From positions 1 to 52,838 of the forward strand of contig CANRSQ010000003.1 of assembly GCA_947642475.1 (NCBI GenBank): a DNA stretch of 52,838 bases, written 5' to 3'. Source of the DNA: an uncultured Mycoplasmatota bacterium (GTDB lineage Bacteria > Bacillota_I > Bacilli_A > RF39 > UBA660). Positions 2,757-50,148 of the stretch are shown here, piece by piece. The notes under the pieces are model-generated. The model searched no databases, was not told the DNA's origin, and saw only the letters and a list, made by a program, of their open reading frames with translations. The translations under genes and the position numbers were made by a program. How positions within the stretch are numbered: the first letter of the stretch is position 1; every line of letters begins with the position of its first letter.

Positions 2757-3692
2757 ATGAAAAAAAGACAGGAAGTATATGATTTATATTGGTATTTTGC
2801 TTATGAAAGACAAAATATATTTTGGAAAAAGTTAAATGGTGAAAGTGCGCCTTGGACTGATGATTTTATTTTAAGGGAGTATAAATTTTGTAACAGTTAT
2901 AGAGTAAATGATAGAGTCAGTCAGTATCTTCTTAAAAATGTAATTTATAATGGTAAAAAATATTCTGATGAGGATATGTTATTTAGGATAATCCTTTTTA
3001 AGTTATTTAATAAGGAATCGACTTGGGAATTATTATTGGATAGTTTTGGTGATATTGTACTTGATAATTTTGATATGGAAAGTTATTCTAGAGTTTTAGA
3101 AAGCGCGATATCTAGTGGGATTAAAATTTATAATGATGCTTATATTAGTTGTGCGAATAAGGCGTTTGGTTATGATAGAAAGCATGATAATCATCTTGCC
3201 CTGCTTCATAAAATGTTTAATATTGATAAGTTTCAATTTAAAATTATGAAGTGTGAGACGATGGAAGAAGCTTTTAATATTATTAGAAGTTATCCTTTGA
3301 TTGGTAATTTTATGGCTTATCAACTTGTAACTGATATAAATTATAGCGAGGTTGTTAATTGGAAAGAAGATGAATTTACGGTTGCTGGTCCTGGGTCTTT
3401 ACGAGGAATTAAAAAGTGTTTTATTTCTAGAGGTAAGATGAGTAATGAAGATATTATTAAGTATATGTACAAACATCAAGATGAGGAGTTTAAAAGACTT
3501 AATTTACCTTTTAAAAGGATTGGTGATAGACCATTACAGCTAATTGATTGTCAAAATATTTTTTGTGAACTTGATAAATATTGCAGGGAGGCCCTACCCG
3601 ATTTAAAATCTAACAGGACTAAAATTAAGAAGAAGTATTCTTCTAAGCCTAATAAAATAGATTATATTTATCCTCCTAAATGGAATGTTTAG
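2757..3692 (+). CDS. Putative DNA base-hypermodification family protein (5-hmdU DNA kinase helical / aGPT-pyrophosphorylase-like module)
   Basis: The ORF is solid (strong RBS). The family call rests on the remembered N-terminal block PWTDDFIL..YKFCNSYRVNDRVSQYL. No P-loop is present. Confidence 0.45.
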   Translation: MKKRQEVYDLYWYFAYERQNIFWKKLNGESAPWTDDFILREYKFCNSYRVNDRVSQYLLKNVIYNGKKYSDEDMLFRIILFKLFNKESTWELLLDSFGDIVLDNFDMESYSRVLESAISSGIKIYNDAYISCANKAFGYDRKHDNHLALLHKMFNIDKFQFKIMKCETMEEAFNIIRSYPLIGNFMAYQLVTDINYSEVVNWKEDEFTVAGPGSLRGIKKCFISRGKMSNEDIIKYMYKHQDEEFKRLNLPFKRIGDRPLQLIDCQNIFCELDKYCREALPDLKSNRTKIKKKYSSKPNKIDYIYPPKWNV

Positions 3693-4308: not shown

Positions 4309-4737
4309 TAGTTTAACTGTATTGTTTATTAATTTTTTCATATCTTCTTTTACTGGTTCTTGATTATTAATGATTTTATCTATACATGTGTATAAGATTC
4401 TTAAACGTAATTTATCTGTTCCATTCATATTGATGAATTTTAGACCAACTGGATAACCTGAATCCATATATATGTTAAGTGTGGCGTTATCATCATTAAA
4501 TATCACTGAAAGGTTTGAAATTGATTTATAAGGTATTGTGTATATTTGTTTTGAGTTATCTTTATTATCAAATAGAACTATTTTATTATCAGTGAATACG
4601 CCGTGGTCTCTTTCTGTTTTGTAAATAGTTAATATTTCTTCATTTTTTACATATTGTCTAGCGTATGCGGGTAAATCTTTTTTATCAAGAATTTCTCTAA
4701 AATTAAATCTTTTTGTAATGTTTCTAAATTTTGTCAT
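4306..4737 (-). CDS. Bacterial PH-domain protein (YokE-like)
   Basis: 143 aa. The pattern ILTIYKTERDHGVFTDNKIVLFD...YTIPYKSISNLSV resembles the YokE-like bPH fold. Own promoter TTGATT-17-TATAAT. Confidence 0.5.
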   Translation of the reverse strand: MTKFRNITKRFNFREILDKKDLPAYARQYVKNEEILTIYKTERDHGVFTDNKIVLFDNKDNSKQIYTIPYKSISNLSVIFNDDNATLNIYMDSGYPVGLKFINMNGTDKLRLRILYTCIDKIINNQEPVKEDMKKLINNTVKL

Positions 4738-4798
4738 TTTTACACCTCAAGTTTTCTTTCCGGCCTTATTATACATGATTTAATTTTGTTAATCAAGA

Positions 4799-5596
4799 TT
4801 ATTTTGATAGTGTTTTTGAAGCTAATGGCCTTTTGAAAGAAATATACCTGTTTATATTTTTTTTGGTTTCTGTATATTCCATGGAATCGTATACTGCTGC
4901 TTTTTCGAATGGATTATTAGTTTTTATAGTTTGCGTTTGATATGCTTCGCCCTCTTTTTTCATAGTATTTTTAACATCATAATAAAGTTTTATTTCTTCA
5001 TCTGTATGGTGAGCAGATAAATACAAATCAATTTGATCATCTGTTAAAAAAGCTATTATATCCATTGTTTGTTTTCCTAAAATATTTTCTAACATTTGCG
5101 CTATTTCGACTTCTTTGTTATAGCCAACAGCTGCAATTTTAATATTGTATTTTTGCGCTAATTGTCTGGTTTTTAATTCATGAATTCCTTCTTCTAATGA
5201 GGTGCCACCCCTACCGCCGCACATATGCATTGTTTCATGAAGTAAGCTATCCATAAAATAGTCCATAGCGCTGTAGCCATCAGTAATCATATGATTAATA
5301 TAGTCTAGATAAGTTGTATCTGTATTTAAATAGTTTTCTACTTTTACACCTGTATCTTTGGTTGTTCCATACAATTCATTTTGCTGAAGCTCGCTAATCA
5401 CTCCATAGGCAATTTTAGGCAGATATAAAACTCCATTCCTTACGAAAAATGATATTCCTTTATCGCCATAAGTAATTCTTTCATCAATGTTCTGTATTAT
5501 ATCATTTATTTTTTCATCACTAATATTATATTCTTGTTTAATAAGTGGTAAATATTTTAAAAGTTCGATTTTAATTTGTTCTATATCATTATTCAT
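4799..5596 (-). CDS. Zincin-like metallopeptidase-motif protein, unknown family
   Basis: HExxH (LLHETMHMCGG) followed by LEEGIHE. The ATG at 5596 is preferred over the track's GTG at 5605. Confidence 0.55.
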   Translation of the reverse strand: MNNDIEQIKIELLKYLPLIKQEYNISDEKINDIIQNIDERITYGDKGISFFVRNGVLYLPKIAYGVISELQQNELYGTTKDTGVKVENYLNTDTTYLDYINHMITDGYSAMDYFMDSLLHETMHMCGGRGGTSLEEGIHELKTRQLAQKYNIKIAAVGYNKEVEIAQMLENILGKQTMDIIAFLTDDQIDLYLSAHHTDEEIKLYYDVKNTMKKEGEAYQTQTIKTNNPFEKAAVYDSMEYTETKKNINRYISFKRPLASKTLSK

Positions 5597-14364: not shown

Positions 14365-16737
14365 TTATTTATCTCTTAATCTAGCATCTATTTTTTCTTC
14401 TACATTTTTGATTATATTGTTAAATACTTCGGTTACTTCTTCTTCTGTTAATGTTCTATTTTGATCAGAGAATGTTAATGAGTAAGCGATTGATTTTTCA
14501 TTTTCTTTAACGTTTTCTCCAGTATATACATCAAATACATGAATGTTTGTAAGAAGTCTGCCACCTGCTCTTTTGATGATATTTTCAACTTCGTCTGATG
14601 TGGTTTCTTTTTTTACAATGAAGGCCATATCTTTGATTATTTCTGGATATTTTGATGCCTCTTTAAATTTAATTGGTTTTGTTTTTGTCATTAAAGCGTT
14701 AAGTGAAAGTTCAGCGACAAAGATATCATCTTTATTTAATGATGGATGAACTTTACCGATTACGCCGATTTGTTTTCTATCTAACATTATTGAGGCACTT
14801 ATACCTGGGTGTAATTCTGGTAAGGTGTTTTTTTGGAATGTATATCTATTTTTAAATCCCATATAATCTAAGATGTTTTCGATAATGCCTTTTATTAAGT
14901 AGAAATCTACTTTTATTTTGGTACCATTCCATTCATTTATGATGTAGTTTCCTTTCATAAGAATGGCAATTTTACTTTCTTCGTTATATTCTTTATCGTA
15001 GGTTTTGCTTATTTCATAAATTAATATGTCTTTAGCTTTTCTCTTTTTATTATAGTCATAGACATTTAATAATGAAGGAATTAGTGTTGTTCTAAGAACT
15101 GATTTATCAATACTCATTGGATTTGGTAAAACTGCGTTTTCTTTGTCTTCATATTTAAATAGTTTTGCCATCTCTGGTGATGTTAAAGTGTATGTTTTGG
15201 TTTCGTTTAGTCCTAGACTTCTTAATCTTTTTGAAACTAATTTTCGATATTTAACATCGCCTTTATATTCACCTTTTTTTATTGGGCAATTTGGAAGTGT
15301 TGAAACTAGGTTATGGTAACCATAAAGTCTTCCTACTTCTTCAGCAATATCGTTTACATTTTCATCGATATCTAATCTTCTATTTGGTATTGTTACGGTG
15401 AACAATCCATCTTTGTATTCAAATGGAAAATCTAATCTATTAAGTTCGGTTTTTACGTCTTCTTCTGAGATTGTAATTCCAAGTAATGAGTTGATTTCTT
15501 CAGCTTTAAAGGTTGTAGTTTTTGGTGTTTTATCTATTTTGTCGTGTTTTACTATTCCAGTTAGCACTTTAGCGCCGGCATATTTTTCAAGTAAATGGCA
15601 AGCTCTTTCAATGGCTTTTTCTGTATATTCATAACTTAAACCTTTTCCATATCTAATTGATGCTTCACTTCTTAAATCTAAATGAGCAGCTGTGTTTCTA
15701 ATACTTACGCTATCAAAGATGGCACTTTCGATAAGGATTGTCTTTGTATTTTCGGTTACTTCGGTATTTTCACCACCCATAACTCCGGCTACACATACTG
15801 GTTTTGTTCCATCGGTAATAACGATATCTGTTTCTTTTAATGTTCTTTCTATACCGTCAAGGGTTATTATTTTTTCTTCTTCTTTGGCATCTCTTACTAG
15901 GATTTTATCTCCTAGCGCACTCTTATCGAAGAAGTGAAGTGGCTGTCCATATTCTAACATTACATAGTTTGAAATATCGACAACGTTATTGATTGAACGC
16001 ATACCATAGGCATTTAATCTTCTTTTAATAAATTCTGGTGATGGGCCTACTTTTACGTCGGTAACCATTTTGGCTAGGTAGAAAGGACATTTTTCTGTTT
16101 CTACTTTTAGGCTGAAATGATTGTTTATATTGTCATCTATTTCGTTTATTGGTGCGTCTGGAAGTGTTACTTTTTTATTTAGAATACATGCGATTTCGTA
16201 AGCAAATCCAATGTGATAATAACAGTCATTATTACGGTGTTTATGGACATCTAACTCATATAAAGTATCATCTAATTTTAGATATTTTAATGCATCCATA
16301 CCAACTGGAGCATCTTGTGGTAATTCTTCGATTCCTCTATCATAGGCTTCCTTAGTTTTTTCTTCTAGACCTAATTCATAAAGAGCACATATCATACCAT
16401 TTGATTCTTCGCCTCTTATTTTGCTTTTTTTGATTTCAAAATCACCTGGAAGAATAGCGCCTGGAAGAGCAACGATAACTTTTAGTCCTTTTCTTACGTT
16501 GTCTGCACCACAAATTATTTGGGTTGTTTCATTACCTATATTTACTTTACAAATGTGTAGGTGATCAGAGTCTGGATGCATTTCACATTCTATAACCTGC
16601 CCTACTACTAAATTATTTATTTTATTAGTTATAACTTTTTCGATGTTGATTCCGGCTTTGGTTATTTTTACAGCTAGTTCTTCTAAATCTTCATCAGATA
16701 TATCTATATAATCCTTTACCCATTCTAAACTTATCAT
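14365..16737 (-). CDS. pheT: Phenylalanine--tRNA ligase beta subunit
   Basis: 790 aa. N-terminal tRNA-binding domain (VGQVIECEMHPDSDHLHICKVNIG), B3/4 and B5 regions. TAATG overlap with pheS. Confidence 0.95.
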   Translation of the reverse strand: MISLEWVKDYIDISDEDLEELAVKITKAGINIEKVITNKINNLVVGQVIECEMHPDSDHLHICKVNIGNETTQIICGADNVRKGLKVIVALPGAILPGDFEIKKSKIRGEESNGMICALYELGLEEKTKEAYDRGIEELPQDAPVGMDALKYLKLDDTLYELDVHKHRNNDCYYHIGFAYEIACILNKKVTLPDAPINEIDDNINNHFSLKVETEKCPFYLAKMVTDVKVGPSPEFIKRRLNAYGMRSINNVVDISNYVMLEYGQPLHFFDKSALGDKILVRDAKEEEKIITLDGIERTLKETDIVITDGTKPVCVAGVMGGENTEVTENTKTILIESAIFDSVSIRNTAAHLDLRSEASIRYGKGLSYEYTEKAIERACHLLEKYAGAKVLTGIVKHDKIDKTPKTTTFKAEEINSLLGITISEEDVKTELNRLDFPFEYKDGLFTVTIPNRRLDIDENVNDIAEEVGRLYGYHNLVSTLPNCPIKKGEYKGDVKYRKLVSKRLRSLGLNETKTYTLTSPEMAKLFKYEDKENAVLPNPMSIDKSVLRTTLIPSLLNVYDYNKKRKAKDILIYEISKTYDKEYNEESKIAILMKGNYIINEWNGTKIKVDFYLIKGIIENILDYMGFKNRYTFQKNTLPELHPGISASIMLDRKQIGVIGKVHPSLNKDDIFVAELSLNALMTKTKPIKFKEASKYPEIIKDMAFIVKKETTSDEVENIIKRAGGRLLTNIHVFDVYTGENVKENEKSIAYSLTFSDQNRTLTEEEVTEVFNNIIKNVEEKIDARLRDK

Positions 16738-17771
16738 TATTCGGCCTCCTTCCTATCGAAGTTTCTACTTTCTCTTAAATCGTTAGCATAAAATACTCTT
16801 AAGTCATCGATTCCATATTTAAGCATTGCTAGTCTTTCAGCACCAAAACCGAAGGCGAAACCTTGCCACTGTTTTGGGTCATATCCACAGTTTTTAAGAA
16901 CATTTGGATGTACCATTCCAGCACCTGAAACAGTTATCCATCCTGTGTTTTTACAGATTGGGCATCCTTTTCCTTTACAACTATGGCAGCTAATATCCAT
17001 TTCTACTGATGGTTCTGTAAATGGATAATATGATGGTCTAAATCTTGTTTTACAGTCTTCTCCAAATAAGTGTTTAGCGATGACATCGAATGTTCCTTTT
17101 AAATCTGAAAGGCTTACGTTTTTATCTATTAGTAATCCTTCTATTTGCATGAATTGATGTGAGTGAGTTGCATCATCATCATCTCTTCTATATGTTTTAC
17201 CTGGACAAATCATTCTAATTGGTTTTTCACCTTTACCTTCTAACATGGTTCTTATTTGAACTGGTGAGGTTTGGCTTCTAAGAAGTAGTTCTTCTCCTTC
17301 AATGTAGAAAGTGTCTTGGGCATCTCTTGCCGGATGTCCTTTTGGTAAGTTTAACATTTCGAAGTTATATTCATCTTTTTCTATTTCTGGTCCATCAACG
17401 ACATCATATCCCATTGACATTAATAGTTCTTCTACTTCTTCTACTATTTTTTCCACAATATTTGGTGCGCCCATTGGTATTTTAGTAGCTGGTAAACTGA
17501 TATCGATACTTTCTTCTTCTAGTTTTTTATTTAATATTTCTGCCATCATTTCTTCTTTTTTAGTATCTAATAAATTAGTGGCTTCGGTTTTTAATTTGTT
17601 TAGGTTAGCTCCAAAGGTTTTCTTTTCTTCATCCTTCAAATCTTTGATTTGTGAAGATAGTTCAGTTATTCTTCCTTTTTTACCTAAATATTTTGTTTTT
17701 ATTTCATTTAAATCATGTTCTTTTTTGATTTCGTTTAAGTCATTTTTTAATTCTTCTAAAATATTTTCCAT
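16737..17771 (-). CDS. pheS: Phenylalanine--tRNA ligase alpha subunit
   Basis: Class II motifs FRPSYYPFTEPS and GFAFGFGAERLAML. AAGGAGGG RBS. Confidence 0.95.
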   Translation of the reverse strand: MENILEELKNDLNEIKKEHDLNEIKTKYLGKKGRITELSSQIKDLKDEEKKTFGANLNKLKTEATNLLDTKKEEMMAEILNKKLEEESIDISLPATKIPMGAPNIVEKIVEEVEELLMSMGYDVVDGPEIEKDEYNFEMLNLPKGHPARDAQDTFYIEGEELLLRSQTSPVQIRTMLEGKGEKPIRMICPGKTYRRDDDDATHSHQFMQIEGLLIDKNVSLSDLKGTFDVIAKHLFGEDCKTRFRPSYYPFTEPSVEMDISCHSCKGKGCPICKNTGWITVSGAGMVHPNVLKNCGYDPKQWQGFAFGFGAERLAMLKYGIDDLRVFYANDLRESRNFDRKEAE

Positions 17772-17785
17772 TTTATCCCTCCTTA

Positions 17786-18000
17786 ATTAAAAAAAATCAC
17801 ATCCTGTATAAGGACGTGATTTACGTGGTACCACCTTAATTTGTAAGTTATACTTACCTTAAGAGCTATAACGCGCTTACCGATATATCTTTGCATATAC
17901 AGCTACCAAAGTGAATTCGTAAAAGATTATTTGTTAGCTCCCACCTATTCTAACTCTCTTTGAAATAATTACTTTTAGTACTACTCTTTGGTCATGGCTT
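17786..18000 (-). promoter_or_regulatory. T-box riboswitch, Phe specifier (UUC)
   Basis: RNA sense: AGAGAG, GGTGGGAGC distal motif, specifier GAA-UUC-A (UUC = 17913..17915), T-box AAGGTGGTACCACG, terminator AATCACGTCC-loop-GGATGTGATT-T8. Confidence 0.85.
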
Positions 18001-18016
18001 TTAAATGACTAAATCA

Positions 18017-37004: not shown

Positions 37005-37907
37005 TTACAAAGTTTTTTCTAATTCATAAGTAGTCACAAAAATATCATTAGGGTTAATATATTTAAAGACATATTTATCGTTTTCTTTCGCACATATAAT
37101 ACCGATTGTTTTATCGTTAAATGGTTCTTTTATATGTTTATCTACATATCCCATATATTTTTTTATTTGTCCAATATGTTCAGCTTTAAATGATGTCACT
37201 TTAAGTTCTAGTACTACATAGCAATTAAATTTAACGTTGTATAGTAAAAAATCTATGTAATGATGGTTGTTACCTATTTTAATTTTTACCTCATGATCTA
37301 CATATGTAAAGCCTATACCTAATTGTTTTAAAAAATTACTCATATCTTCCAAAATAGCATTATGTATAAATAGTTCATTTATTTTATCTGGAATTTTTTT
37401 AGCATTTATAATTACAGGTTCTTTTATTAAGGTGGTTACTTTGGGGTTATCTAATTCACTTTTATATCCTATTCTTTCGTATTCTTTAGATTTGATTCTT
37501 TCTCTAAGTTCACGTACCGATAAATTTTGAGATTTAATTATGGAAATATAATAATTTTTAGCATTTTCATCTTTTATTGATAAAATTTTATATACATGAC
37601 TCCATGTAAGACCTTCCAAAAGGTGGGACACCGTCCCACCTTTTGGAAATGTTAAATAAAACTGACGCATCCTCTTTAAATTAGAAACATCATATCCCTT
37701 TCCAAGTTCTTTTGTTAATCTCTCAGAATATTCTTTAATGAGTTTGTTGCCATATTTTGCGCGACCTTCCCCACCTTGAGCCTCTATAAGTAATCTTCCT
37801 ACTTCATAATAACTATTTAAATCACTTTTATTTTTAGAATAATCCTTTGCTTTTTTATACATTTCATTTTTTATTAATGTATCTTTTATTTTGTTATAGT
37901 AATTCAT
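37005..37907 (-). CDS. YhcG/DUF1016 PDDEXK-family nuclease-like protein
   Basis: N-terminal SYYEVGRLLIE...NLKRMRQFYLTFP...LTWSH and C-terminal YIDFLLYN...YVVLELKV (PD-(D/E)xK-like) blocks. Confidence 0.8.
   Translation of the reverse strand: MNYYNKIKDTLIKNEMYKKAKDYSKNKSDLNSYYEVGRLLIEAQGGEGRAKYGNKLIKEYSERLTKELGKGYDVSNLKRMRQFYLTFPKGGTVSHLLEGLTWSHVYKILSIKDENAKNYYISIIKSQNLSVRELRERIKSKEYERIGYKSELDNPKVTTLIKEPVIINAKKIPDKINELFIHNAILEDMSNFLKQLGIGFTYVDHEVKIKIGNNHHYIDFLLYNVKFNCYVVLELKVTSFKAEHIGQIKKYMGYVDKHIKEPFNDKTIGIICAKENDKYVFKYINPNDIFVTTYELEKTL
37614..37648. repeat. Perfect intragenic inverted repeat, 16-bp arms with a 3-nt spacer
   Basis: TTCCAAAAGGTGGGAC-acc-GTCCCACCTTTTGGAA inside the YhcG CDS. 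It encodes FPKGGTVSHLLE in frame. GC-rich core in an AT-rich genome. Confidence 0.95.
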
Positions 37908-37957
37908 TAAACAAAACCTTCTTTCTTTTTGGTTTTGCCCTTTTTTATTCTCTATAT

Positions 37958-38005
37958 ATAATATACGGTAAAAGTCTAGCGAATTCCTGCAAGAAAATGA
38001 AAAAA
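37958..38005. promoter_or_regulatory. Conserved 48-nt upstream module, copy B
   Basis: ATAATATACG - 14 nt - AATTCCTGCAAGAAAATGAAAAAA, identical blocks and spacing to 26914..26961. It lies between the GT2 terminator and the YhcG start. Confidence 0.7.
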
Positions 38006-38020
38006 GTTGAAATTTCTTTA

Positions 38021-38052
38021 AAAAAGCAAAAAACTATGTTGTTTACATAGCT
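38021..38052 (-). terminator. Rho-independent terminator of the GT2 gene
   Basis: AGCTATGT-aaaca-ACATAGTT followed by TTTTTGCTTTTT on the minus strand. Confidence 0.7.
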
Positions 38053-38061
38053 TTGCAGTAA

Positions 38062-38751
38062 TTAATTATTACGTTTGTATTTTATTAATACCTTTAGATG
38101 TCTGATGCTATCTCTAATTGGTCTTAGATGTGGTTTTCTTGCTTTCTTTCCTTTGGAAAGTGTGATTGGTATTTCTTTTATTTTATAGTTTTGTTTATAA
38201 CACAATATTATCATTTCACTAGCAAATTCCATACCAGATGATTGTAGGTTTAGTTTTAATATTCTTTCTTTGTTTATGCCTCTTAGTCCACAGTGGAAAT
38301 CGTTTACTCCACATGGATATAGTTTTTTCCCGATATAACTTAAAATGGGATTACCTATATATTTATTTAATAATGGCATGGCTCCTTTTTCAATACCGCC
38401 TTTAAATCTATTACCAATTACTAAATCATTTCCTTCTTCAAGGTATTTATAAAATTGATTTAAATTTAGAAAGTCATATGTATCATCACTATCACCCATG
38501 ATTATATATTTTCCTTTTGCTTTTTTTATACCTTCTAATAATGCGTTTCCATAGCCTTTTTCTTTTACATTAATTACTCTTGCTTTATTTTCTTTAGCAA
38601 TTTTTATTGAATCATCGGTACTTCCGTTATCGGCTATTAACACTTCTCCATCTATGTTATTTATTTTTAGAAATGTTTGGGCTTTTACGATGCATGATTC
38701 TAGGCTTTCTGCTTCGTTTAAACATGGCATTAATATTGTTAATTTCTTCAT
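38062..38751 (-). CDS. Glycosyltransferase family 2 (soluble, 229 aa)
   Basis: TILMPCLNEAESL...ADNGSTDDS...IIMGDSDDTYD (DxD). No C-terminal TM. Confidence 0.8.
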   Translation of the reverse strand: MKKLTILMPCLNEAESLESCIVKAQTFLKINNIDGEVLIADNGSTDDSIKIAKENKARVINVKEKGYGNALLEGIKKAKGKYIIMGDSDDTYDFLNLNQFYKYLEEGNDLVIGNRFKGGIEKGAMPLLNKYIGNPILSYIGKKLYPCGVNDFHCGLRGINKERILKLNLQSSGMEFASEMIILCYKQNYKIKEIPITLSKGKKARKPHLRPIRDSIRHLKVLIKYKRNN

Positions 38752-38830
38752 TTTATACTCCTTCTATTAGTATGGTCTTTGTTGTTATTCATTTTAAGTA
38801 TATCATATTTTTTATAGTATGTATTTAATT

Positions 38831-38860
38831 AAGAAAAATCCAAAGAATTAATCTTTGGAT
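38831..38860 (-). terminator. Rho-independent terminator of the HerA-like gene
   Basis: ATCCAAAGA-loop-TCTTTGGAT followed by TTTTCTT on the minus strand. Confidence 0.8.
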
Positions 38861-40632
38861 TATTTTCTATCTATGAACCAGTTTGTACTTATGTCACAAC
38901 TACTACTTGATGGTGGTGGGGTTGGTTTATCTAGTTTTACTAAAACTGGTACTTTAAATGCATTACCAAAGGCTATACAATTACCTGGTTGAAGTACTCT
39001 TAATCTTTTTACGATTTCGTTTGTAATATTTGGTACCATTTCTCTAATATATGTAATGTCTCTTGGATGTAACATTTTGAATATTAAGAAATTATTACAT
39101 TGTGAAATTGATGTTTCTGATAGATCCGATGGTCTTTGTGAGATTAGGCCTAGTAAAACTCCGTATTTTCTTCCTTCTTTGGTTATTCGATCAAAGATGT
39201 TATAACCTAAAAGATTTACATCGTTATCGTTTTGAACGTATCTATGGGCTTCTTCTAGAATAATGTGGAATGGCAATGATGCTCTTTTATCTAGATTTTT
39301 AGCATAGTCGAATAATAGTCTTGAATATATTTTTGTTATTGTTTTAGCAAATCTATCGTCAACATAATTTATGTTGAAATTGATTATTTGGGCTTTTCTA
39401 CCGTTACCTACTAATAATAGATTTTTGATGTAGTCATCGATACTGATATATTCTTTATAGTCAAAATATACTGCATAATCACTATTTAATAAAGTATGTA
39501 ATCTTACTTTTAATACATTGGCTTCATCATATACTCTTTCGCTATTTAATGATCCTTCTGATATTAATGCGAAGTCTAAGGCTAATTTAAGGTCGTTTAA
39601 CCCGTATTTAAATGAACCATCTGGCATCGTAAGCTCAATATTATCATCTAAGAATGATTGCATGAATTTTGTGATTAATTCCATTTCTCTTATTTTACCG
39701 CTGGCATCTATTATTAGGCATTGTTTTAATGTTCTAACATACCCTGGTTGATATATTTGCGAGTCTAGATTTAAATCTTTGGTATTATAATTTGATAATA
39801 CTGAGAATATTTGGTCTCTTATGGTTGAGGCTGGTTTACCACTTGATAGGATATCTAATATTGCTCTGGCGATGATATCGTTTTTTTGTTTGATTACTTC
39901 TGATTCTTCTCTAGCAAAGACGTTAACTAGTTTTAATGCTTTTTCGATAATTGGAAGTTGTGTTGGTTTTTCGGCGTTTAATAGTAACGCGATATCGTCG
40001 ATATTAAGTAACCATAGTGGTATTTTTAGTGTTTCTGAATCACTGAAGTTTGTATTTGTTGTATAGGCTTTAAATGATACTTCTGGTGCGATTTGGTTTA
40101 TATCTTTAAAGGCTGCATGATATTCGCCGTATGCATCGAAGATGAAAATACTAGCTCTATAAGCAACAGTTGTTTTTTTATCAAAAATACTTTGAATTAA
40201 ATGAGCTACTCCCCATGATTTTCCTGAACCTGTTGATCCAAAAATGGCAAAGTGATTTGAGAAAAATTCATTAATGTTAAATCCTATTTTAACGTCTTCG
40301 TATATTGGACTTGTCCCGATATATAAATCTTTATTTTCTTTATAATCATCGACACTTATTATCATTGGTATTTTTTCTTTTGATATAAGTTTTACGGATG
40401 CTCCAAATGATGGTTTTCTAATGACACCAAAAATAAATTTATTATTTATGATTTCTCCTAATAAATTTACATATGCGATTCCGTCTTTGATATTGGCAAT
40501 CTCACCGACTATGATTTTATTGTCATCTTCCATTACAACGTGTAAATTGACTAAGTTTTGAAATTCTTTTAATTCAATATTTAATCTAACTAGAACTGTA
40601 TCTTCTTCTAGCCCCATTATTACTCCTAACAT
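38860..40632 (-). CDS. HerA/DUF87-type ATPase (HAS-barrel + FtsK/HerA-like P-loop)
   Basis: N-terminal barrel-like region, Walker A IFGSTGSGKSW, Walker B FHIILEEAHRY, arginine-finger region LISQRPSD. Confidence 0.75.
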   Translation of the reverse strand: MLGVIMGLEEDTVLVRLNIELKEFQNLVNLHVVMEDDNKIIVGEIANIKDGIAYVNLLGEIINNKFIFGVIRKPSFGASVKLISKEKIPMIISVDDYKENKDLYIGTSPIYEDVKIGFNINEFFSNHFAIFGSTGSGKSWGVAHLIQSIFDKKTTVAYRASIFIFDAYGEYHAAFKDINQIAPEVSFKAYTTNTNFSDSETLKIPLWLLNIDDIALLLNAEKPTQLPIIEKALKLVNVFAREESEVIKQKNDIIARAILDILSSGKPASTIRDQIFSVLSNYNTKDLNLDSQIYQPGYVRTLKQCLIIDASGKIREMELITKFMQSFLDDNIELTMPDGSFKYGLNDLKLALDFALISEGSLNSERVYDEANVLKVRLHTLLNSDYAVYFDYKEYISIDDYIKNLLLVGNGRKAQIINFNINYVDDRFAKTITKIYSRLLFDYAKNLDKRASLPFHIILEEAHRYVQNDNDVNLLGYNIFDRITKEGRKYGVLLGLISQRPSDLSETSISQCNNFLIFKMLHPRDITYIREMVPNITNEIVKRLRVLQPGNCIAFGNAFKVPVLVKLDKPTPPPSSSSCDISTNWFIDRK

Positions 40633-40677
40633 GTTATCACCCTATTATAATGTTATCACAAAGGTGGCTTTTATGTA

Positions 40678-40711
40678 AAGAAAAAGTGTTAGATTATTGA
40701 ATTTCTAACAC
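40678..40711 (-). terminator. Rho-independent terminator of yqeH (overlaps its 3' end)
   Basis: GTGTTAGA-loop-TCTAACAC followed by TTTTTCTTT on the minus strand. Confidence 0.75.
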
Positions 40712-41666
40712 TGACTTTGACACCATCTTTTATGTATAATTTTATTTTACAGTCTTTGGTTGATTTGATAAAACCTAGGCCTTTTATGACTATATCTTGA
40801 TTTTCTTTTACATTTAAATTATGGCGTTTTAAGTCTTCTAATTTATTTGTCTGTTTATAGAATCTTTCTAATTTTAGATCATTTGATGTATAAAATATTA
40901 GATTTGTTCCTTTGGTTACATCTATTCTAAATAGATTTCCAACAATTATTGTTTGGTCTATTTTTACTTGGATAACGGCTGGTTTTAATTCTTTTTTTGG
41001 TAATATTTTATTTAATATTTCACCTTTAACATCTAAGATAATGCTTCCTTCATCTAGTAATCCTGGAGTATCTATTATGGTTAAATCTTTATTTATTTTT
41101 ACATCAATTAAATCTAAGGTTGTTGATGGTAAAATACTGGTTGTGATTTCTGTTTGGTTTTGTCCATAATCTTTAATTAGTTTATTTATTAGTGTACTTT
41201 TACCGGCGTTTGTATAACCTATAACGTATACGTTATTTGACTTTTTATATTTATTTATTTTTTCATATAGTGTGTCTAGGTTATAGTTATTTTTACTGCA
41301 AACGACTACTTTGTCTATTACATTTAGATTGGTTTTTATTTTGTTTAATAATTTGTTTTCGTCTAAATTTCTTGGAATTAAATCTCTTTTGGCAAGTACT
41401 AGTAAAACGGGATTTTTAATTTTTAATTCGTTTAAACTTTCGGTATTTAGAAAATCGGTAACTAATATTACTAGGTCGTTTGTTTTTTCTATTTGTTTGA
41501 TAATGTTTAAATAATATTCATTATCTTTATCGATAAATTTATAATCGTTATAATGTCTTATTCTAAAACATCTTTCGCATAGATTTTTGGTTAGGTCTTT
41601 TACGTACCCTTCTTTATTTTTATCTTCGTTTTGTAAAACGGCTCCGCAGCCTATACATTTAGTCAT
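40689..41666 (-). CDS. yqeH: Ribosome biogenesis GTPase YqeH
   Basis: N-terminal zinc finger CIGCG...CERCF. Circularly permuted G motifs LAKRDL, GYTNAGKST, DTPG. Confidence 0.85.
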   Translation of the reverse strand: MTKCIGCGAVLQNEDKNKEGYVKDLTKNLCERCFRIRHYNDYKFIDKDNEYYLNIIKQIEKTNDLVILVTDFLNTESLNELKIKNPVLLVLAKRDLIPRNLDENKLLNKIKTNLNVIDKVVVCSKNNYNLDTLYEKINKYKKSNNVYVIGYTNAGKSTLINKLIKDYGQNQTEITTSILPSTTLDLIDVKINKDLTIIDTPGLLDEGSIILDVKGEILNKILPKKELKPAVIQVKIDQTIIVGNLFRIDVTKGTNLIFYTSNDLKLERFYKQTNKLEDLKRHNLNVKENQDIVIKGLGFIKSTKDCKIKLYIKDGVKVSVRNSII

Positions 41667-42180
41667 AATATCTTCCTTTACAGAATAGGTCTTTGTTTCT
41701 TAATTTTTTCATTTTCTTTATTTCTAAGTAGCGGAAGATTTTTCCGGTGAAATAATTTTTATTTGAGCATGGGTTTACTAATATTGTCGTGATGCCGACT
41801 GTGTTACCGCATAAAACATCTGTATACATTTGATCACCAATGTTGGCGATTTCATTTAATTTGTATCCAGAGTTATTAATGAATTTTTTTAGTTTACAAG
41901 TAAATGGCTTAAGAGCGAAAGAAATAAAGTCAACATTTAGGGCTTCGGCAAATCTTTTTACTCTTTTTTTAGGACTATTTGAGAAAATCACAACTTTGAA
42001 TCCTTTTTGTTTTAGGCTGACAATTAGTTCTTTTGCTTTTTCTGTTAAGTCATTTGTTTTGGCTGGAACTAGTGTATTATCTAGATCAAATAAAATACAT
42101 TTTATGCCTCTACTTAGTAATTTTGAGTAATCGATTGTATATATACTTTTTTGGTAGATATCTGGTATAAATTTTTCCAT
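41659..42180 (-). CDS. yqeG: YqeG-family HAD IIIA phosphatase
   Basis: ILFDLDNTL motif. 8-nt overlap with yqeH. The ATG at 42180 follows a GGAGGGA RBS. Confidence 0.8.
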   Translation of the reverse strand: MEKFIPDIYQKSIYTIDYSKLLSRGIKCILFDLDNTLVPAKTNDLTEKAKELIVSLKQKGFKVVIFSNSPKKRVKRFAEALNVDFISFALKPFTCKLKKFINNSGYKLNEIANIGDQMYTDVLCGNTVGITTILVNPCSNKNYFTGKIFRYLEIKKMKKLRNKDLFCKGRYYD

Positions 42181-42251
42181 AAGGTATCCCTCCATAACTA
42201 TTTATATAATAACATAATTGTTATGTGATGGGCAACTATTTTGCTTTATAC

Positions 42252-42285
42252 AAAAGAAAAAACTTGATTATTTGGTATCAAGTTT
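42252..42285 (-). terminator. Rho-independent terminator of the Bro-N gene (overlaps its 3' end)
   Basis: AACTTGAT-loop-ATCAAGTT followed by TTTTTCTTTT on the minus strand. Confidence 0.75.
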
Positions 42286-43128
42286 ATTATTTTTTTCTAA
42301 ATATCTTCCGCCTATATTATTTTCTATTTTTATAGCTTTCTGTTTTGTTTCTTGTTCATAATAATCTTTCGCTATTTTGGATATTGTGCCTCCCCTTTTA
42401 GCTACATTTAAATTTTCTTTTAATCCCGTTGGTTTTTCCTTTTTGGCAATGTCTCTTGTTGTTAGTTCTCCTAAATCAGCTAGTACTAGTTCTATATCGC
42501 TCATATTATCTCTAAGTGATTCTTTTCTAATTCCTTTTAACTGTTTATATTCTTTTGCGGTCATATTAGACCAGGTTTTATAAATTTCATTTGTTAGCAT
42601 GGCATATTCATAGTTTTCGGTTATGCCACCTTCTTTCCAAATGTCTGTAAGTTTTTTTCTATTTAGAATTCCATTAACTCGTGATTTGATCCAATCGTCT
42701 GAATAACCTTTGTTACGATAGTATTCTATGGCTCTATTTATGGCTATTTCTGGGTCAAATACTTCGTCGATTCTTTCTTTTCCTAAAGTAGCCAACCACA
42801 TTTTAAATGGTTCGGCTTTTGGACTTGGCACTGATTCGATTAAACGAAGTATTCCTTCTGTATCTAGGGTGTCGGTCGGATAGTTCTTTCCATCCTTTTG
42901 TGATTGCATTTTTAGTTTCCGACATTTTGTCGGAATCTCACTTTTTTCTTGTTTTGTTAATCGCCTCTTTAACGTCGTCCAATAGTCACTTGGGTCATCA
43001 CTTTCTGTTAAAACAGCTATAACGTCGACAACTGATAAATAGTAATCTTCCTTGTCTGCGTCCCATATACTTCTGATTTTATTTCCTTCAAATAAGTCAG
43101 TAATTGTTTGTAGTTTGTTTTCCTTCAT
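42268..43128 (-). CDS. Bro-N domain protein, DinD-like
   Basis: FEGNKIRSIWDADKEDYYLSVVDVIAVL (Bro-N). The C-terminus LRDNMSDIELVLADLGE...AKRGGTISK resembles the DNA-damage-inducible protein D type. Confidence 0.75.
   Translation of the reverse strand: MKENKLQTITDLFEGNKIRSIWDADKEDYYLSVVDVIAVLTESDDPSDYWTTLKRRLTKQEKSEIPTKCRKLKMQSQKDGKNYPTDTLDTEGILRLIESVPSPKAEPFKMWLATLGKERIDEVFDPEIAINRAIEYYRNKGYSDDWIKSRVNGILNRKKLTDIWKEGGITENYEYAMLTNEIYKTWSNMTAKEYKQLKGIRKESLRDNMSDIELVLADLGELTTRDIAKKEKPTGLKENLNVAKRGGTISKIAKDYYEQETKQKAIKIENNIGGRYLEKNNKLDTK
42917..42935. repeat. Perfect intragenic inverted repeat, 8-bp arms with a 3-nt spacer
   Basis: TTCCGACA-ttt-TGTCGGAA inside the Bro-N CDS (IPTKCRK). Short enough to arise by chance on its own. 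Confidence 0.8.
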
Positions 43129-46430: not shown

Positions 46431-46460
46431 AAAGAAAAAAGAATAGATTTTGTCTATTCT
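46431..46460 (-). terminator. Rho-independent terminator of the alaS-like gene
   Basis: AGAATAGA-loop-TCTATTCT followed by TTTTTTCTTT on the minus strand. It includes the stop codon. Confidence 0.8.
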
Positions 46461-48211
46461 AAAATGGCTTTTATTCTTCTAACTCCTGCACTACTTGCTT
46501 CTTCTTTTTTGATTTTGAAGTGTCCAAGTTCTTTGGTGTTTTTTACATGTGGTCCGCCACAAAGTTCTTTTGAGATATTACCTATGGAATATACTGTTAC
46601 TTCATCTGGATATTTTTCAATAAACATGCATTCAGCACCTGAGTTTAAGGCTTCTTCTTTACTCATTATTTCATTTGTTACTTCTAGGCCTTCTTCTATC
46701 CATTTGTTTACTAGGTCTTCTGTTTGTTGTTTTTCTTCATCTGTTAGTTTATGATCACATGAAAAGTCAAAACGCATTCTTTCGGCGGTTATATTACTTC
46801 CCATTTGGTGTACATCTTTATTTACTACTTCTTTTAAAGCGGCATTTAGTAAGTGAGTTGCGGTGTGGTATTTTGTTTCGATTATTCCATCGCTTGCTAG
46901 ACCGCCTTTAAATTTACCGGCAGATGCGGTTCTTGATTTTTCTTGATGTTCTTTGAATTTTTGTTTAAATCCTTCAATATCTACTTTAAGGTTTTGTTCT
47001 TGTGCGAGTTCTTCTGTTAATTCTATTGGGAAACCATAGGTGTCATATAATTTGAAGGCTAAATTTTTATTTATGGTATCTTCTTTTAGATTGTTTGTTA
47101 TTTTTTCAAATTCTCTTAGTCCTTTTTCTAGGGTTCTATTAAATTTAGTTTTTTCGGTTTGTAATACTTCTAAAATTGTGTCTTTATTGCGTTCTAATTC
47201 ATTGTAATAGTTTTTATATTTATCTATTATCATTAGTGCAATTTCTTTATCCCAATTTGTATTTATATCGATGTCTAATTTTTTGGCGTATCTAATTGTT
47301 CTTCTTATTAGTCTTCTTAGGATATATCCTTGGTCAGTATTTGATGGCTTTATTTTGGCGTCATCACCGCTTATCATAACAATTGCTCTTATGTGATCAG
47401 CGATTATTCTCATTGCTTTTGTATAGTTTTCATCATTATAACTTTTTCCAGTAAGTTTTTCTATTTTATTTATTACATCTATCCAAATTGATGTTTTATA
47501 GTTATCGTCTTTACCTTCTAGAACGGCTGTAATTCTTTCTACTCCCATTCCTGTATCGACGTTCTTTTGTGAAAGTTCGGTTATGGTTCCGTCTTCATGC
47601 ATGTAGTATTGCATAAATACGTTATTCCATATTTCTACCCATCTATCATCTTCTGGATCATGTTTTTGGGGGATAGGATCTTCACTTCTCCAATAGAATA
47701 TTTCGGTGTCTGGTCCGCAAGGTCCACTAGTCCCCGCAATCCAGAAGTTATCATCTTTACCTAAATAACTGATTCTTTCTTCTTTTATTCCTAAGCTTTT
47801 CCAAATGTTTGCTGATTCTTCATCTCTTGGAATATTCCCTTCTCCTTCGAATACGGTTACTGCTAATCTTTCTACTGGTATACCAAATCCTTTGGTTAAT
47901 AGTTCAAAACTCCAATTGATTGATTCTTTTTTGAAATAATCTCCTAATGACCAATTACCTAGCATTTCAAAGAAAGTATGATGAGTTGTATCTCCTATTT
48001 CTTCTAAGTCGTTGGTTCTGAAACATTTTTGAACGTCTACTAGTTTTGTTCCTTCAGGATGTGGTTGACCTAATAGATAAGGTACTAGTGGTTGCATACC
48101 TGCGGTTGTGAATAAACTTGTTGGATCGTTTTCAGGAATTACTCCGGCACTGGGAATATGTTTATGATCTTTATTTTCAAAAAAATTTATATATGTATCT
48201 TTTATGTTCAT
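46454..48211 (-). CDS. alaS: Alanine--tRNA ligase, minimal 585-aa form (no beta-barrel, no C-Ala domain)
   Basis: N-terminus NDPTSLFTTAGMQP, HHTFFEMLGNWSLGDYFK, SGPCGPDTEIFY, DTGMGVERI. Editing motifs HTATH (449-453) and CGGPH (551-555). Ends 30 aa later. Confidence 0.85.
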   Translation of the reverse strand: MNIKDTYINFFENKDHKHIPSAGVIPENDPTSLFTTAGMQPLVPYLLGQPHPEGTKLVDVQKCFRTNDLEEIGDTTHHTFFEMLGNWSLGDYFKKESINWSFELLTKGFGIPVERLAVTVFEGEGNIPRDEESANIWKSLGIKEERISYLGKDDNFWIAGTSGPCGPDTEIFYWRSEDPIPQKHDPEDDRWVEIWNNVFMQYYMHEDGTITELSQKNVDTGMGVERITAVLEGKDDNYKTSIWIDVINKIEKLTGKSYNDENYTKAMRIIADHIRAIVMISGDDAKIKPSNTDQGYILRRLIRRTIRYAKKLDIDINTNWDKEIALMIIDKYKNYYNELERNKDTILEVLQTEKTKFNRTLEKGLREFEKITNNLKEDTINKNLAFKLYDTYGFPIELTEELAQEQNLKVDIEGFKQKFKEHQEKSRTASAGKFKGGLASDGIIETKYHTATHLLNAALKEVVNKDVHQMGSNITAERMRFDFSCDHKLTDEEKQQTEDLVNKWIEEGLEVTNEIMSKEEALNSGAECMFIEKYPDEVTVYSIGNISKELCGGPHVKNTKELGHFKIKKEEASSAGVRRIKAILE

Positions 48212-48753
48212 GATTCCACCTCTTCTATCATTTTGTGTACTTTGTCTTCTAAGTCTTTTAAGTCGCCATTATTTGTAATTAAGTAGTCATAGTTTTCGTA
48301 GTTTTCTAAGGCGTGTTCGGTTATGTGCATTTTTTGTCTTTCGGTTAATTTATTTTCATAGTTTGGTCTTTCCATTTTTATAATTGTGACGTTTTTGAAT
48401 TTGTTTTTTGGAATATCTAGTTCGTCTGGAAATCTGGCACCGGATATTATTATAACATCAAAAAAATATTTGTAAACCATTATATCTTCGCATATACGGT
48501 TTATGAAAAATTCTTTATTGATTTGATTTCTAACAATATCGGTTCCAATGATTTGTAATAATTCTCTTGGTTTGGTTTCATCTTTGCCATCCCAATTGGT
48601 TATTTTTTGGGCATAGTTTTTTATGTAATCGGCGTAGCCTAGGTTAACTACTAATTTATTTTGTTTTTCATAGTAGTCTTTTATTATCTTTAGGGTTTCA
48701 TCTTTTCCTGTTCTGGCTTGTCCTGCGATTAAAAATATTTTTGTTTCTTTCAT
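48208..48753 (-). CDS. P-loop kinase resembling phage T4 gp1 deoxynucleoside monophosphate kinase
   Basis: GQARTGKDE, LLQIIGTDIVRN, ISGARFPDELD and HITEHAL...LITNNGDLKDLE parallel T4 gp1 blocks (GVKRSGKD, ALGTDLIVN, PDTRQDHEMD, HITEAGL...VITNDGSLEEL; from memory). The stop overlaps the alaS ATG (ATGA). Confidence 0.6.
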   Translation of the reverse strand: MKETKIFLIAGQARTGKDETLKIIKDYYEKQNKLVVNLGYADYIKNYAQKITNWDGKDETKPRELLQIIGTDIVRNQINKEFFINRICEDIMVYKYFFDVIIISGARFPDELDIPKNKFKNVTIIKMERPNYENKLTERQKMHITEHALENYENYDYLITNNGDLKDLEDKVHKMIEEVES

Positions 48754-48780
48754 ATTTATCTCCTTATAAAAAGATACCAC

Positions 48781-48935
48781 GTTTTCTAGGAACGAAAAGC
48801 CGTGGTACCATCCTAATTAGTCTTAATTAATATAACGGTTTTACCCGGATGTGTTTGCACATCACTCAAAAGGAGCTTTCGGTTAATTTGTTTTACTAGT
48901 TTCCACCATACACTAGCTCTCTATGAAAACTTGAT
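48781..48935 (-). promoter_or_regulatory. T-box riboswitch, probable Ala specifier (GCU)
   Basis: RNA sense: AGAGAG, CTAGT-GTATGGTGGAA-ACTAG, specifier region CCGAAAGCUCC (GCU = 48874..48876), T-box AGGATGGTACCACGG (UGGU pairs with an A73 discriminator), terminator followed by TTTTT before the AAGGAG RBS. Confidence 0.8.
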
Positions 48936-48939
48936 TAAC

Positions 48940-50148
48940 TTACTTTTCTTTTTTTACGTTTTTATTTATTTTTTTGACTGAAATTTTTGTATCTTCGACT
49001 TCTAACAATTCGGGCTGCCTGTCTATAATGTTATATTTACGGTCGAAGAATTGGAATATTGTTTTTCCAACTGCAATACATGGAGTTGAAATAATCATTC
49101 CTAGCATTCCGAAGAAATAGCCAAATACTAATAGTCCTAACATAATTGTTACTGGATGTAACTTTGTTGTTTTTGACATAATAAATGGTTGTAGGAAGTT
49201 TCCTTCTAAGAATTGTATTACGATAATTACAATTAAGGTTAGAATACCTACGGTTGGGCTTTGAGTAAATCCAACGATTACGGCTGGAGCGCCTCCAATA
49301 TATGGTCCTGCGTAAGGAATTAAATTTGTAAGTCCACAGAAGAATCCGAATAATGCGGGTGCTTTTAAGCCTACTAGCCATAGGCCGATTGATGTTAATA
49401 TAAATACGGCTGAACAATCGATAATTGCGCCTTGAACATATTTTCTAAGTGAATTATTAACGTCGTTAATTAAGTCCATACTTGTTTCTCTGAATTTTTT
49501 TGGTAAAAAGTTAATAAGCGCGGTTTTTGAAGTTGAGCTTACTAGTAGGAAGAATCCAATGATTAGTCCTAGTACTAGTGTTCCCATACCAGAGAAGAAG
49601 CCTGATATAAAGTTAAATAGTCCTGCTGGTAATTCTTTTGTGACACCGGCAGCTGTTTGATTGAATTTTTCAAAGAATTCATCTTTAATAGCCTCGGCAT
49701 CAATATTTTGAATGTTCTTTAGATGGTCAAACATATTTAAGCACCATGCTTTAATGGATTCAAATACGTCTGGGGCTATTTTAGCGAATTCGGTTATTTG
49801 ATCTGCAAGTAATGGAATTAAAGCGGCTAAAACTAGAAATACTATTAAGAAAAGTATTAGGTATGTTATGATTGCTCCAAAGGTTCTTTTGATTCCTTTT
49901 GTTTGCATCCATTTTACAAATGGGTCAAATAGCCAAGCTATTAATATTCCTATAAATAGTGGTGCGACTATTTTAACTATTGTCCATATAAAGTGTAATA
50001 TATTTGTTTCTTTAAATAGTAAAATAATTAAGTATAGACCTAAAGCTAGCAGTAAAAAGTATGTAGCATTTAATACTTTAGATGCGCGGTCGGCTACTTC
50101 GTTTATTTTTTGTTTATCAATTTCTGTGGCAGTTTTTTTTCTAAACAT
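48940..50148 (-). CDS. AI-2E family transporter (PerM/YubA-like)
   Basis: About 8 TM segments with typical layout and the PLFIGILIAWLFDPFVKWM region. The RBS overlaps the frr 3' end, so it is co-transcribed with frr. Confidence 0.8.
   Translation of the reverse strand: MFRKKTATEIDKQKINEVADRASKVLNATYFLLLALGLYLIILLFKETNILHFIWTIVKIVAPLFIGILIAWLFDPFVKWMQTKGIKRTFGAIITYLILFLIVFLVLAALIPLLADQITEFAKIAPDVFESIKAWCLNMFDHLKNIQNIDAEAIKDEFFEKFNQTAAGVTKELPAGLFNFISGFFSGMGTLVLGLIIGFFLLVSSTSKTALINFLPKKFRETSMDLINDVNNSLRKYVQGAIIDCSAVFILTSIGLWLVGLKAPALFGFFCGLTNLIPYAGPYIGGAPAVIVGFTQSPTVGILTLIVIIVIQFLEGNFLQPFIMSKTTKLHPVTIMLGLLVFGYFFGMLGMIISTPCIAVGKTIFQFFDRKYNIIDRQPELLEVEDTKISVKKINKNVKKEK

Follow-up and report, generated by a model that had tools for sequence, protein, structure and literature searches.

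In the 52,838-nucleotide window analysed here (contig CANRSQ010000003.1 of an uncultured Mycoplasmatota bacterium), a T-box leader, the gene of a kinase for nucleoside and deoxynucleoside monophosphates ((d)NMPs; dNMPs for the deoxy forms) related to gp1 of phage T4, and alaS, the gene of a short alanyl-tRNA synthetase (AlaRS), follow one another. With a probability of roughly 60%, we consider this to be the housekeeping alaS operon of uncultured gut Bacilli with small genomes, in which a phage-type (d)NMP kinase has become fixed between leader and alaS, in a frozen arrangement whose two genes are translated together. The T-box, the gp1-type dNMP kinase and the NF002436 AlaRS are each parts of a known kind; what is new is the near-universal pairing of kinase and alaS in one clade and their fusion into a single protein in five species. 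In the literature we found no mention of a dNMP kinase-alaS operon, of its fusion of about 1,100 amino acids (aa), or of short and full-length AlaRS behind the same kinase.

The comparisons below draw on 115 loci that remained, after removal of duplicates, from two pooled genome scans (the best 80 matches of each) and metagenome look-ups; 112 of these loci are informative. The kinase homologues come solely from metagenome-assembled genomes of uncultured Bacilli, Firmicutes and Tenericutes, mostly from gut samples, and include CAG:822, CAG:884 and Candidatus Coprosoma, names that we place in the GTDB order RF39. Among these genomes are two complete chromosomes (OZ007025.1 and OZ007022.1), with sizes of 1.34 and 1.52 Mb.

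An alanine T-box operon

The leader lies ahead of the kinase gene, and alaS ends in a stop codon with a hairpin and T-run; the unit therefore runs leader - kinase - alaS - terminator, with leader and both genes on the minus strand. All the elements listed by a first-pass annotation, made from the letters of this DNA, are present; the operon is however to be read on the minus strand, and the leader extends to 48965 and not to 48935, the first 30 nucleotides (nt) of it having been missed. The features, with the evidence for each, are as follows (ORF, open reading frame; RBS, ribosome-binding site; MFE, minimum free energy):

48940..50148, minus strand: AI-2E family transporter gene, directly upstream of leader and kinase (ORF)
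48785..48965, minus strand: complete T-box leader RNA, RF00230 (Rfam covariance match)
48874..48876, minus strand: specifier codon GCU (Ala) in the Stem I specifier loop, context CGAAAGCUCC (Rfam alignment)
48807..48810, minus strand: T-box bulge AGGAUGGUACC, UGGU (Rfam alignment)
48766..48809, minus strand: leader terminator, a GGUACCACG/CGUGGUAUC stem, an inner 5-bp stem and UUUUUAU (MFE structure, z = -2.2)
48760..48765, minus strand: kinase RBS AAGGAG, 6 nt ahead of the ATG (sequence)
48208..48753, minus strand: gp1-type (d)NMP kinase gene, 181 aa, ATG at 48753 (ORF, Pfam, PHROG, fold)
48215..48222, minus strand: alaS RBS GAGGTGGA, inside the kinase gene (sequence)
48208..48211, minus strand: ATGA stop/start overlap of kinase and alaS (sequence)
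46454..48211, minus strand: alaS, 585 aa, ending in TAG (ORF)
46919..48211, minus strand: AlaRS residues 1-431, class II catalytic and tRNA-recognition domains (PF01411, Aquifex and E. coli N-terminal structures, alignments)
46868..46918, minus strand: 17-residue AlaRS linker GKFKGGLASDGIIETKY (alignments to E. coli and full-length relatives)
46454..46867, minus strand: AlaRS residues 449-585 and stop, AlaX-S-like editing core (PF07973, AlaXM model, alignments)
46431..46460, minus strand: AT-rich hairpin AGAAUAGA-caaa-UCUAUUCU with U-run, overlapping the alaS stop (read from the sequence)

The leader matches RF00230 with 109.1 bits (gathering score 93, E 2.8e-23) over model positions 1-219, that is, over the full model, and folding shows that its terminator and antiterminator are mutually exclusive, the 5' arm of the terminator being the T-box sequence itself. 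Related leaders precede the kinase in 55 non-redundant loci. A simple pattern parsed 47 of these, and all 47 hold GAA(A)GCU, about half of them reading GAA-GCU-A in the canonical geometry of codon plus purine, while the bulge is UGGU (AUGG-U-ACC) in 54 of the 55. Since UGGU pairs with a tRNA 3' end ACCA, the discriminator base is A73, which is the discriminator of tRNA-Ala, that of tRNA-Ser being G73. We thus predict that the leader responds to tRNA-Ala, with the specifier GCU, cognate of the AlaRS gene that it regulates. The first-pass annotation had likewise placed an alanine T-box, with its UGGU bulge and GCU, ahead of the 181-aa kinase, and had named serine as the reading that would overturn this. 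In the window the loop can indeed be read as GAA-AGC-U, with AGC as a tRNA-Ser specifier, if the codon directly follows GAA; but GAA-GCU-A in about half of the parsed leaders can only read Ala, GCU is found in every parsed leader, and the synthetase under control is AlaRS. Because the bulge U pairs with A73 of tRNA-Ala, whereas tRNA-Ser has G73, we regard the serine reading as very unlikely, to the point of being negligible.

This leader resembles the T-boxes of Firmicutes aminoacyl-tRNA synthetase genes (RF00230, alaS leaders included) in its full-length match, Stem I specifier loop, UGGN bulge, competing terminator and antiterminator and cognate synthetase downstream. It differs from them in that the first regulated gene is a nucleotide kinase and not a synthetase, that some relatives have yet another small ORF first, and that about half of the orthologous operons are leaderless. 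In five relatives (L023, L036, L076, L111, L133) this additional ORF separates the kinase from the Ala T-box; it is unrelated, of 123-223 aa and not the same in every lineage, so that the space after the leader accepts passenger genes. A T-box is present in roughly half of the loci, 38 of the 74 with a short form, 10 of the 20 with a long form and none of four fusions, and its absence was confirmed by Rfam in 21 loci. The leader anatomy supports, for this locus, the proposal that the kinase stands under tRNA-Ala control, but such control is facultative in the clade. A second T-box leader in the window (17807..18004, minus strand, 105.7 bits) lies ahead of pheS (16737..17771, 344 aa) and pheT (14365..16737, 790 aa) and, as judged from this layout, is that of an ordinary Phe T-box operon.

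As first described, the kinase stop codon overlaps the alaS start (ATGA, 48211..48208) and the RBS GAGGTGGA (48222..48215) lies inside the kinase gene, an anatomy that suggests coupled translation of kinase and AlaRS. An alternative GTG start of the kinase at 48780 falls inside the leader terminator stem and is not used by homologues. The hairpin at 46431..46460 is probably the operon terminator; a consensus terminator scan did not pick it up, because the stem has no G-C-rich core. At the other end, the leader shares its 5' 26 nt with the 3' end of the AI-2E transporter gene, a consensus scan gave no minus-strand promoter upstream of 48965, and transcription of the leader by read-through from the AI-2E gene is possible.

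A compact kinase of the T4 gp1 family

The kinases of this clade currently stand in the sources as unnamed 'hypothetical proteins'. The window kinase scores 63.3 bits with PF21448 (DNMK; cut-off 27.1), a match restricted to the C-terminal half of that profile (positions 121-232); PHROG 139, 'deoxynucleoside monophosphate kinase', matches residues 1-178 (2.8e-34), and a profile of 14 homologues finds the T4 gp1 structure 1DEK with E 2.5e-15. Its AlphaFold model (pLDDT 92.6) has 1DEK as its top PDB match in Foldseek, with a TM score of 0.73 normalised by query length and an identity of about 19%, followed by phosphomevalonate kinase (PMK) and then by Tmk, APS kinase and Adk. By these matches the protein is a member of the T4 gp1/phage dNMP-kinase family, with a predicted activity on dNMPs. 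The kinship with T4 gp1 that the first-pass annotation had read from the sequence blocks was thus recovered both by profile and by structure, and the kinase does not belong to a housekeeping family with a known link to alaS.

The motifs of the protein are the P-loop GQARTGKD (residues 11-18), WDGxDETKPR (54-63), SGAR (104-107) and HITE (143-146). The active site was mapped by profile alignment to 1DEK together with the residue Table 2 of PMC10653934. In the ATP site, gp1 R11/G13/K14/D15 correspond to R14/G16/K17/D18 of the kinase, and R197 and N223 to R129 and N161. In the dNMP site, R132, T140, R177 and E181 of gp1 correspond to R63, T71, R107 and E111, and the dNMP 'locking' motif H206/T208/E209 to H143/T145/E146. 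Residues G16, K17, R63, R107, E111, E146 and N161 are invariant across the family, and R14 and T71 nearly so. With T4 gp1 (1DEK/1DEL) the kinase therefore shares not only family and fold but also the P-loop, the phosphate-binding arginines, the base contacts E181 and R177 and the H-x-T-E locking motif.

At the position of gp1 V144 the kinase has an arginine (R75), as does the enzyme of Pseudomonas putida, PP_1964. P. putida depends on this gp1-like protein for its essential TMP kinase, and in other bacteria gp1-like homologues that stand alone take the place of tmk (PMC10653934). Both PP_1964 and the window protein are phage-type kinases fixed in a bacterial chromosome; the one described here differs from PP_1964 (PMC10653934) in lying in an alaS operon and not in a tmk/holB locus or genomic island, and in that its substrate is assigned by homology.

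A search of 1.84 billion cluster representatives returned 17,797 relatives of the kinase at E <= 1e-3, of which 184 reach E <= 1e-30, almost all with a length of 175-190 aa; the closest phage relative shows an identity of 31% only. The genomic context of the more distant relatives was sampled, and some of these sit in phage nucleotide-metabolism modules. The sampled cases are:

P0140: kinase, then a 592-aa short AlaRS, in a different upstream neighbourhood
P0166: kinase, then a second P-loop kinase, full-length alaS and holA
P0168: fusion of DNMK and cytidylate kinase (Cmk domain 239 bits), just upstream of full-length alaS
P0226: DNMK with an NT5C deoxynucleotidase, beside ribonucleotide reductase
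P0215: RNase H with DNMK
P0185, P0175, P0200: phage-like modules

Because relatives are fused to cytidylate kinase, 5'-deoxynucleotidase and RNase H, a nucleotide is far more likely than a tRNA end as the substrate predicted for this kinase. The suggestion made at first reading, that it might act on a tRNA or RNA end, finds no support: these partners, the phage nucleotide modules and the gp1 phosphate and base contacts to the dNMP, which are kept, all point to a nucleotide monophosphate kinase of phage ancestry. More broadly, a non-nucleotide substrate, be it mevalonate 5-phosphate as for animal-type PMK, an RNA or tRNA 5' end or an aminoacyl moiety, would fit the linkage of the gene to a tRNA-handling enzyme and the fact that profile and fold also match animal-type PMK (7XND 2.5e-8, 3CH4 1.7e-7, by the same profile as used for 1DEK). 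Animal-type PMK (PF04275; 3CH4, 7XND) has the same NMP-kinase-like fold and a similar length and is the second-best match in structure and profile; PF04275, however, scores 18 bits, below its cut-off of 33.8, gp1 and the phage dNMP kinases give far better matches, the kinase signature follows gp1, the genomic company is that of nucleotide metabolism, and polynucleotide-kinase and PSTK-type folds come far lower in the Foldseek list (rank 38). We consider a non-nucleotide substrate highly improbable.

Two side observations concern other kinases. In L165/L166 a 186-aa AAA_18-type kinase (4546..5106) stands between the gp1-like kinase and alaS, and holA follows alaS. In the window, a 311-aa protein encoded at 2757..3692 (plus strand) matches PF18723, '5-hmdU DNA kinase, helical domain', with 349 bits, a family of phage thymidine-hypermodification pathways, here with a member in a bacterial contig.

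A short AlaRS without beta-barrel and C-Ala

The 585-aa AlaRS keeps the catalytic core and the editing motifs HTATH (residues 449-453) and CGGPH (551-555) and lacks the editing beta-barrel and the C-Ala domain; this architecture, already noted in the first-pass annotation, was recovered by alignment to E. coli AlaRS. In Pfam, PF01411 matches with 480 bits and PF07973 also matches, with no match to PF02272 (DHHA1/C-Ala), and the N-terminal structures of Aquifex and E. coli AlaRS match the N-terminal part with E about 1e-100. Residues 3-431 align to E. coli 8-441 (40% identity) and residues 449-583 to E. coli 564-698 (44% identity). Between these two blocks, E. coli residues 442-563 (122 residues, linker and editing beta-barrel) are replaced by the 17 residues GKFKGGLASDGIIETKY, and E. 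coli 699-876 (C-Ala, 178 residues) are absent, the short AlaRS ending 2 residues past the editing core. The same two gaps appear against the full-length AlaRS of sister lineages. The standard alaS model TIGR00344 reaches position 431 only, and the AlaXM model matches at its positions 96-233 only, the editing core without the N-terminal subdomain; the editing part is thus the core only, as it is in the free-standing AlaX-S editing proteins.

In E. coli AlaRS, N303 and D400 read the G3:U70 pair, and H564, H568, Q584, C666 and H670 form the editing site. The short AlaRS has aligned counterparts of all of these, N291 and D390 for the former and H449, H453, Q469, C551 and H555 for the latter.

The NCBIfam equivalog NF002436 (PRK01584), a model of 595 positions, matches with 805.8 bits against a cut-off of 529, residues 3-585 corresponding to model positions 6-593. 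The match runs end to end, nothing structural sets the protein apart, and by this profile the short AlaRS is a member of this existing curated family. The 'minimal AlaRS' of the first-pass annotation is thus real as a reduced form, but its type had already been curated (NF002436, 806 bits). Spirochaete AlaRS may be of this short type as well. A truncation by assembly does not account for the short form, because its stop codon is followed by the hairpin and T-run and because intact short AlaRS genes of about 578-595 aa occupy this locus in 77 other non-redundant loci.

Several points bear on whether this enzyme does the routine charging. Spare synthetases under T-box control are known from Bacilli (thrZ and tyrZ of B. 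subtilis, for example), and the short AlaRS could be such an auxiliary paralogue, induced by starvation, with a canonical full-length AlaRS elsewhere in the genome doing the routine work. The short gene, however, lies in the same conserved slot (AI-2E - kinase - alaS) as the full-length alaS of sister lineages; the short proteins of the 77 loci are 54-86% identical to the window protein; NF002436 is an equivalog for alanine--tRNA ligase; genomes of this type have 1.3-1.5 Mb; and half of the loci are without any T-box. We hold a spare paralogue to be improbable. The short AlaRS is, to all appearance, a working housekeeping alanine--tRNA ligase, and its positional orthology with full-length alaS favours a single copy, so that we infer it to be the sole enzyme of this kind.

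The prototype architecture of AlaRS is described as conserved throughout biology, with natural exceptions in the C. elegans mitochondrial enzyme, the split enzyme of Nanoarchaeum equitans and the mini-AlaRS of Tupanvirus (PMC8887476, PMC10036535). As in these reduced enzymes, C-Ala, the main tRNA-elbow-binding module, is lost in the short AlaRS, and acceptor-stem recognition must therefore suffice. In contrast to the Tupanvirus enzyme, the editing core in cis and the N and D that read G3:U70 are kept, and in contrast to the whole set of exceptions the short form is bacterial and spread over many species. The AlaRS literature searched does not discuss this bacterial short form, and we found in it no biochemical study of a bacterial short AlaRS of the NF002436 type.

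Pairing of kinase and alaS across the clade

A survey of co-occurrence finds the kinase directly upstream of alaS, or fused to it, in 108 of the 112 informative loci, with short and full-length AlaRS alike. The loci are distributed as follows:

77 loci: kinase directly upstream of short AlaRS
21 loci: kinase directly upstream of full-length AlaRS (892-907 aa, with C-Ala)
5 loci: kinase followed by an alaS that runs off the contig
5 loci: single in-frame kinase-AlaRS ORF
1 locus: one ORF between kinase and alaS
3 loci: kinase behind the AI-2E gene, alaS not in the locus (CAG:884 clade)
3 loci: uninformative

The junction of kinase and alaS is in most loci an overlap of 4-11 nt or a gap of 0-5 nt, and about 90% of loci have an AI-2E transporter gene ahead of the kinase. 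The five fusions (L060, L082, L089, L094, L100) come from different studies and join the kinase through linkers of 4-35 residues to a full-length AlaRS; where the ORF is complete (L060/L090, L082/L088, L094, L100) the product has about 1,080-1,120 aa, and L089 runs off its contig. In their closest sister species (L091-L093) the genes are separate.

In a neighbour-joining (NJ) tree of the AlaRS N-domain, with E. coli as the only outgroup, the short forms stand together and the long forms L066 and L081 lie near the base. L066 and L081 have a full-length AlaRS (907 aa; alaS at 5535..8258 in L066) together with T-box and kinase, and in this simple NJ tree their catalytic domain groups with the short forms, apart from the remaining long forms; the ancestor of the short form may have looked like these two. 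For the kinase (180 aa), the NJ tree is poorly resolved, and pairwise distances of kinase and AlaRS correlate with r = 0.40 overall and 0.45 within the short forms.

In L096, L098, L099 (Firmicutes bacterium CAG:884) and L137 the kinase lies directly behind the AI-2E gene with alaS not in the locus; in these loci it is followed by a 457-aa membrane protein, a 438-aa MurD-like ORF (read from its N-terminal sequence) and an enolase-like ORF. Downstream of alaS, an RNase P RNA gene (RF00011, 257-290 bits) lies within 0.4-2.5 kb in 8 of 13 relatives scanned (L020, L026, L037, L044, L063, L064, L068, L083); none was found in the window. An HD-domain dNTPase gene that follows alaS in L002 was considered as a link to nucleotide metabolism and rejected, as, among loci whose downstream sequence is long enough, such a gene occurs in only 14 of 78 with a short or long form and in none of the eight others.

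In the reading that we prefer, a frozen housekeeping operon, a poorly charged tRNA-Ala would pair through its anticodon with GCU and through its free ACCA end with the UGGU bulge, and its binding would, as expected from canonical T-box anatomy, stabilise the antiterminator over the terminator (48809..48766) and let the polymerase enter the operon. One mRNA would then give kinase and AlaRS, their translation probably coupled through the ATGA overlap. With the gamma-phosphate of ATP, the kinase would phosphorylate a (d)NMP, plausibly a pyrimidine dNMP (dTMP, for instance), and would act as a housekeeping nucleotide kinase, as PP_1964 does in P. putida, a role suggested by homology, by the kept residues and by the fusion partners of its relatives. 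The 585-aa AlaRS would charge tRNA-Ala by acceptor-stem (G3:U70) recognition alone and edit with its AlaX-S-like core, without beta-barrel or contact of C-Ala to the tRNA elbow. The kinase-alaS operon would then have stayed frozen, one subclade having gone further, to gene fusion, and T-box control of the kinase would be a by-product of gene position. We attribute alanine control of the kinase to position and not to design because the T-box is optional, because other passenger ORFs use the same slot, because CAG:884 keeps the kinase without alaS and because the other fusion partners of the family are nucleotide enzymes.

Some observations weigh against this reading. On the side of the kinase, D175 of gp1, a base contact, corresponds to G105 here, a glycine in the subclade of the window and an aspartate in most relatives. 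Most of the helical insert of T4 gp1 (about residues 40-125) is also missing, some 60 insert residues having no counterpart; the second, myoglobin-like helical domain is not present (181 aa against 241 aa), and the kinase is therefore a compact subtype. On the side of the operon, adjacency in 108 of 112 loci is more than simple inertia might predict, the pairing spans two AlaRS lineages that share only about 40% identity, it is kept in a locus with a different upstream context (L164), and in-frame fusions exist in five species; persistence and fusions together hint at selection for co-expression or contact.

These points of pairing, with the stop/start overlaps of most loci, are also what favours the kinase as a dedicated partner of AlaRS, acting with it as a complex or fused enzyme, operon and fusion having been selected for that; the kinase could possibly remove or recycle a nucleotide product at the synthetase, or tie AlaRS activity to nucleotide status. 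The fusions are however a tight group with the unfused sisters L091-L093 interleaved, and for this reason may trace to few events between genes that already overlapped. The CAG:884 clade keeps the kinase without an adjacent alaS, genes can intervene between kinase and alaS (a second kinase in L165, an ORF in L122), the distances of the two proteins correlate only weakly (r = 0.40), and the family is otherwise fused to nucleotide enzymes and not to translation factors. We know of no aminoacyl-tRNA synthetase that needs an NMP kinase. We therefore regard a dedicated partnership as unlikely, though deserving of serious thought, and the stricter form of it, in which the AlaRS of this clade has the kinase as a genuine accessory subunit or domain, acting in a complex that is fused in five species, as rather doubtful. 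If it were so, the kinase might handle the AMP or nucleotide side of aminoacylation or couple alanine charging to the supply of deoxynucleoside triphosphates, and such a setting might have made it tolerable to lose C-Ala and the beta-barrel.

Away from the operon, the window holds a patch of mobile- and defence-flavoured genes (37005..43128, minus strand):

37005..37907, minus strand: YhcG PDDEXK nuclease/DUF1016
38860..40632, minus strand: HerA-like DUF87 ATPase
42268..43128, minus strand: BRO-N domain protein

The locus bears on AlaRS, on the kinase and on operons in general. An AlaRS without C-Ala and editing beta-barrel is the apparent working enzyme of many gut species, and nature thus offers a way to ask which parts of AlaRS charging requires, and which the clearing of Ser- or Gly-tRNA-Ala; the few natural exceptions to the AlaRS architecture have each merited a study (PMC8887476, PMC10036535). 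With this kinase, Bacillota provide a second example of a bacterial chromosome in which a phage-type dNMP kinase has become fixed. The pairing of kinase and alaS, together with its fusions, offers a handle on the old question of whether operon partnerships come from function or from history.

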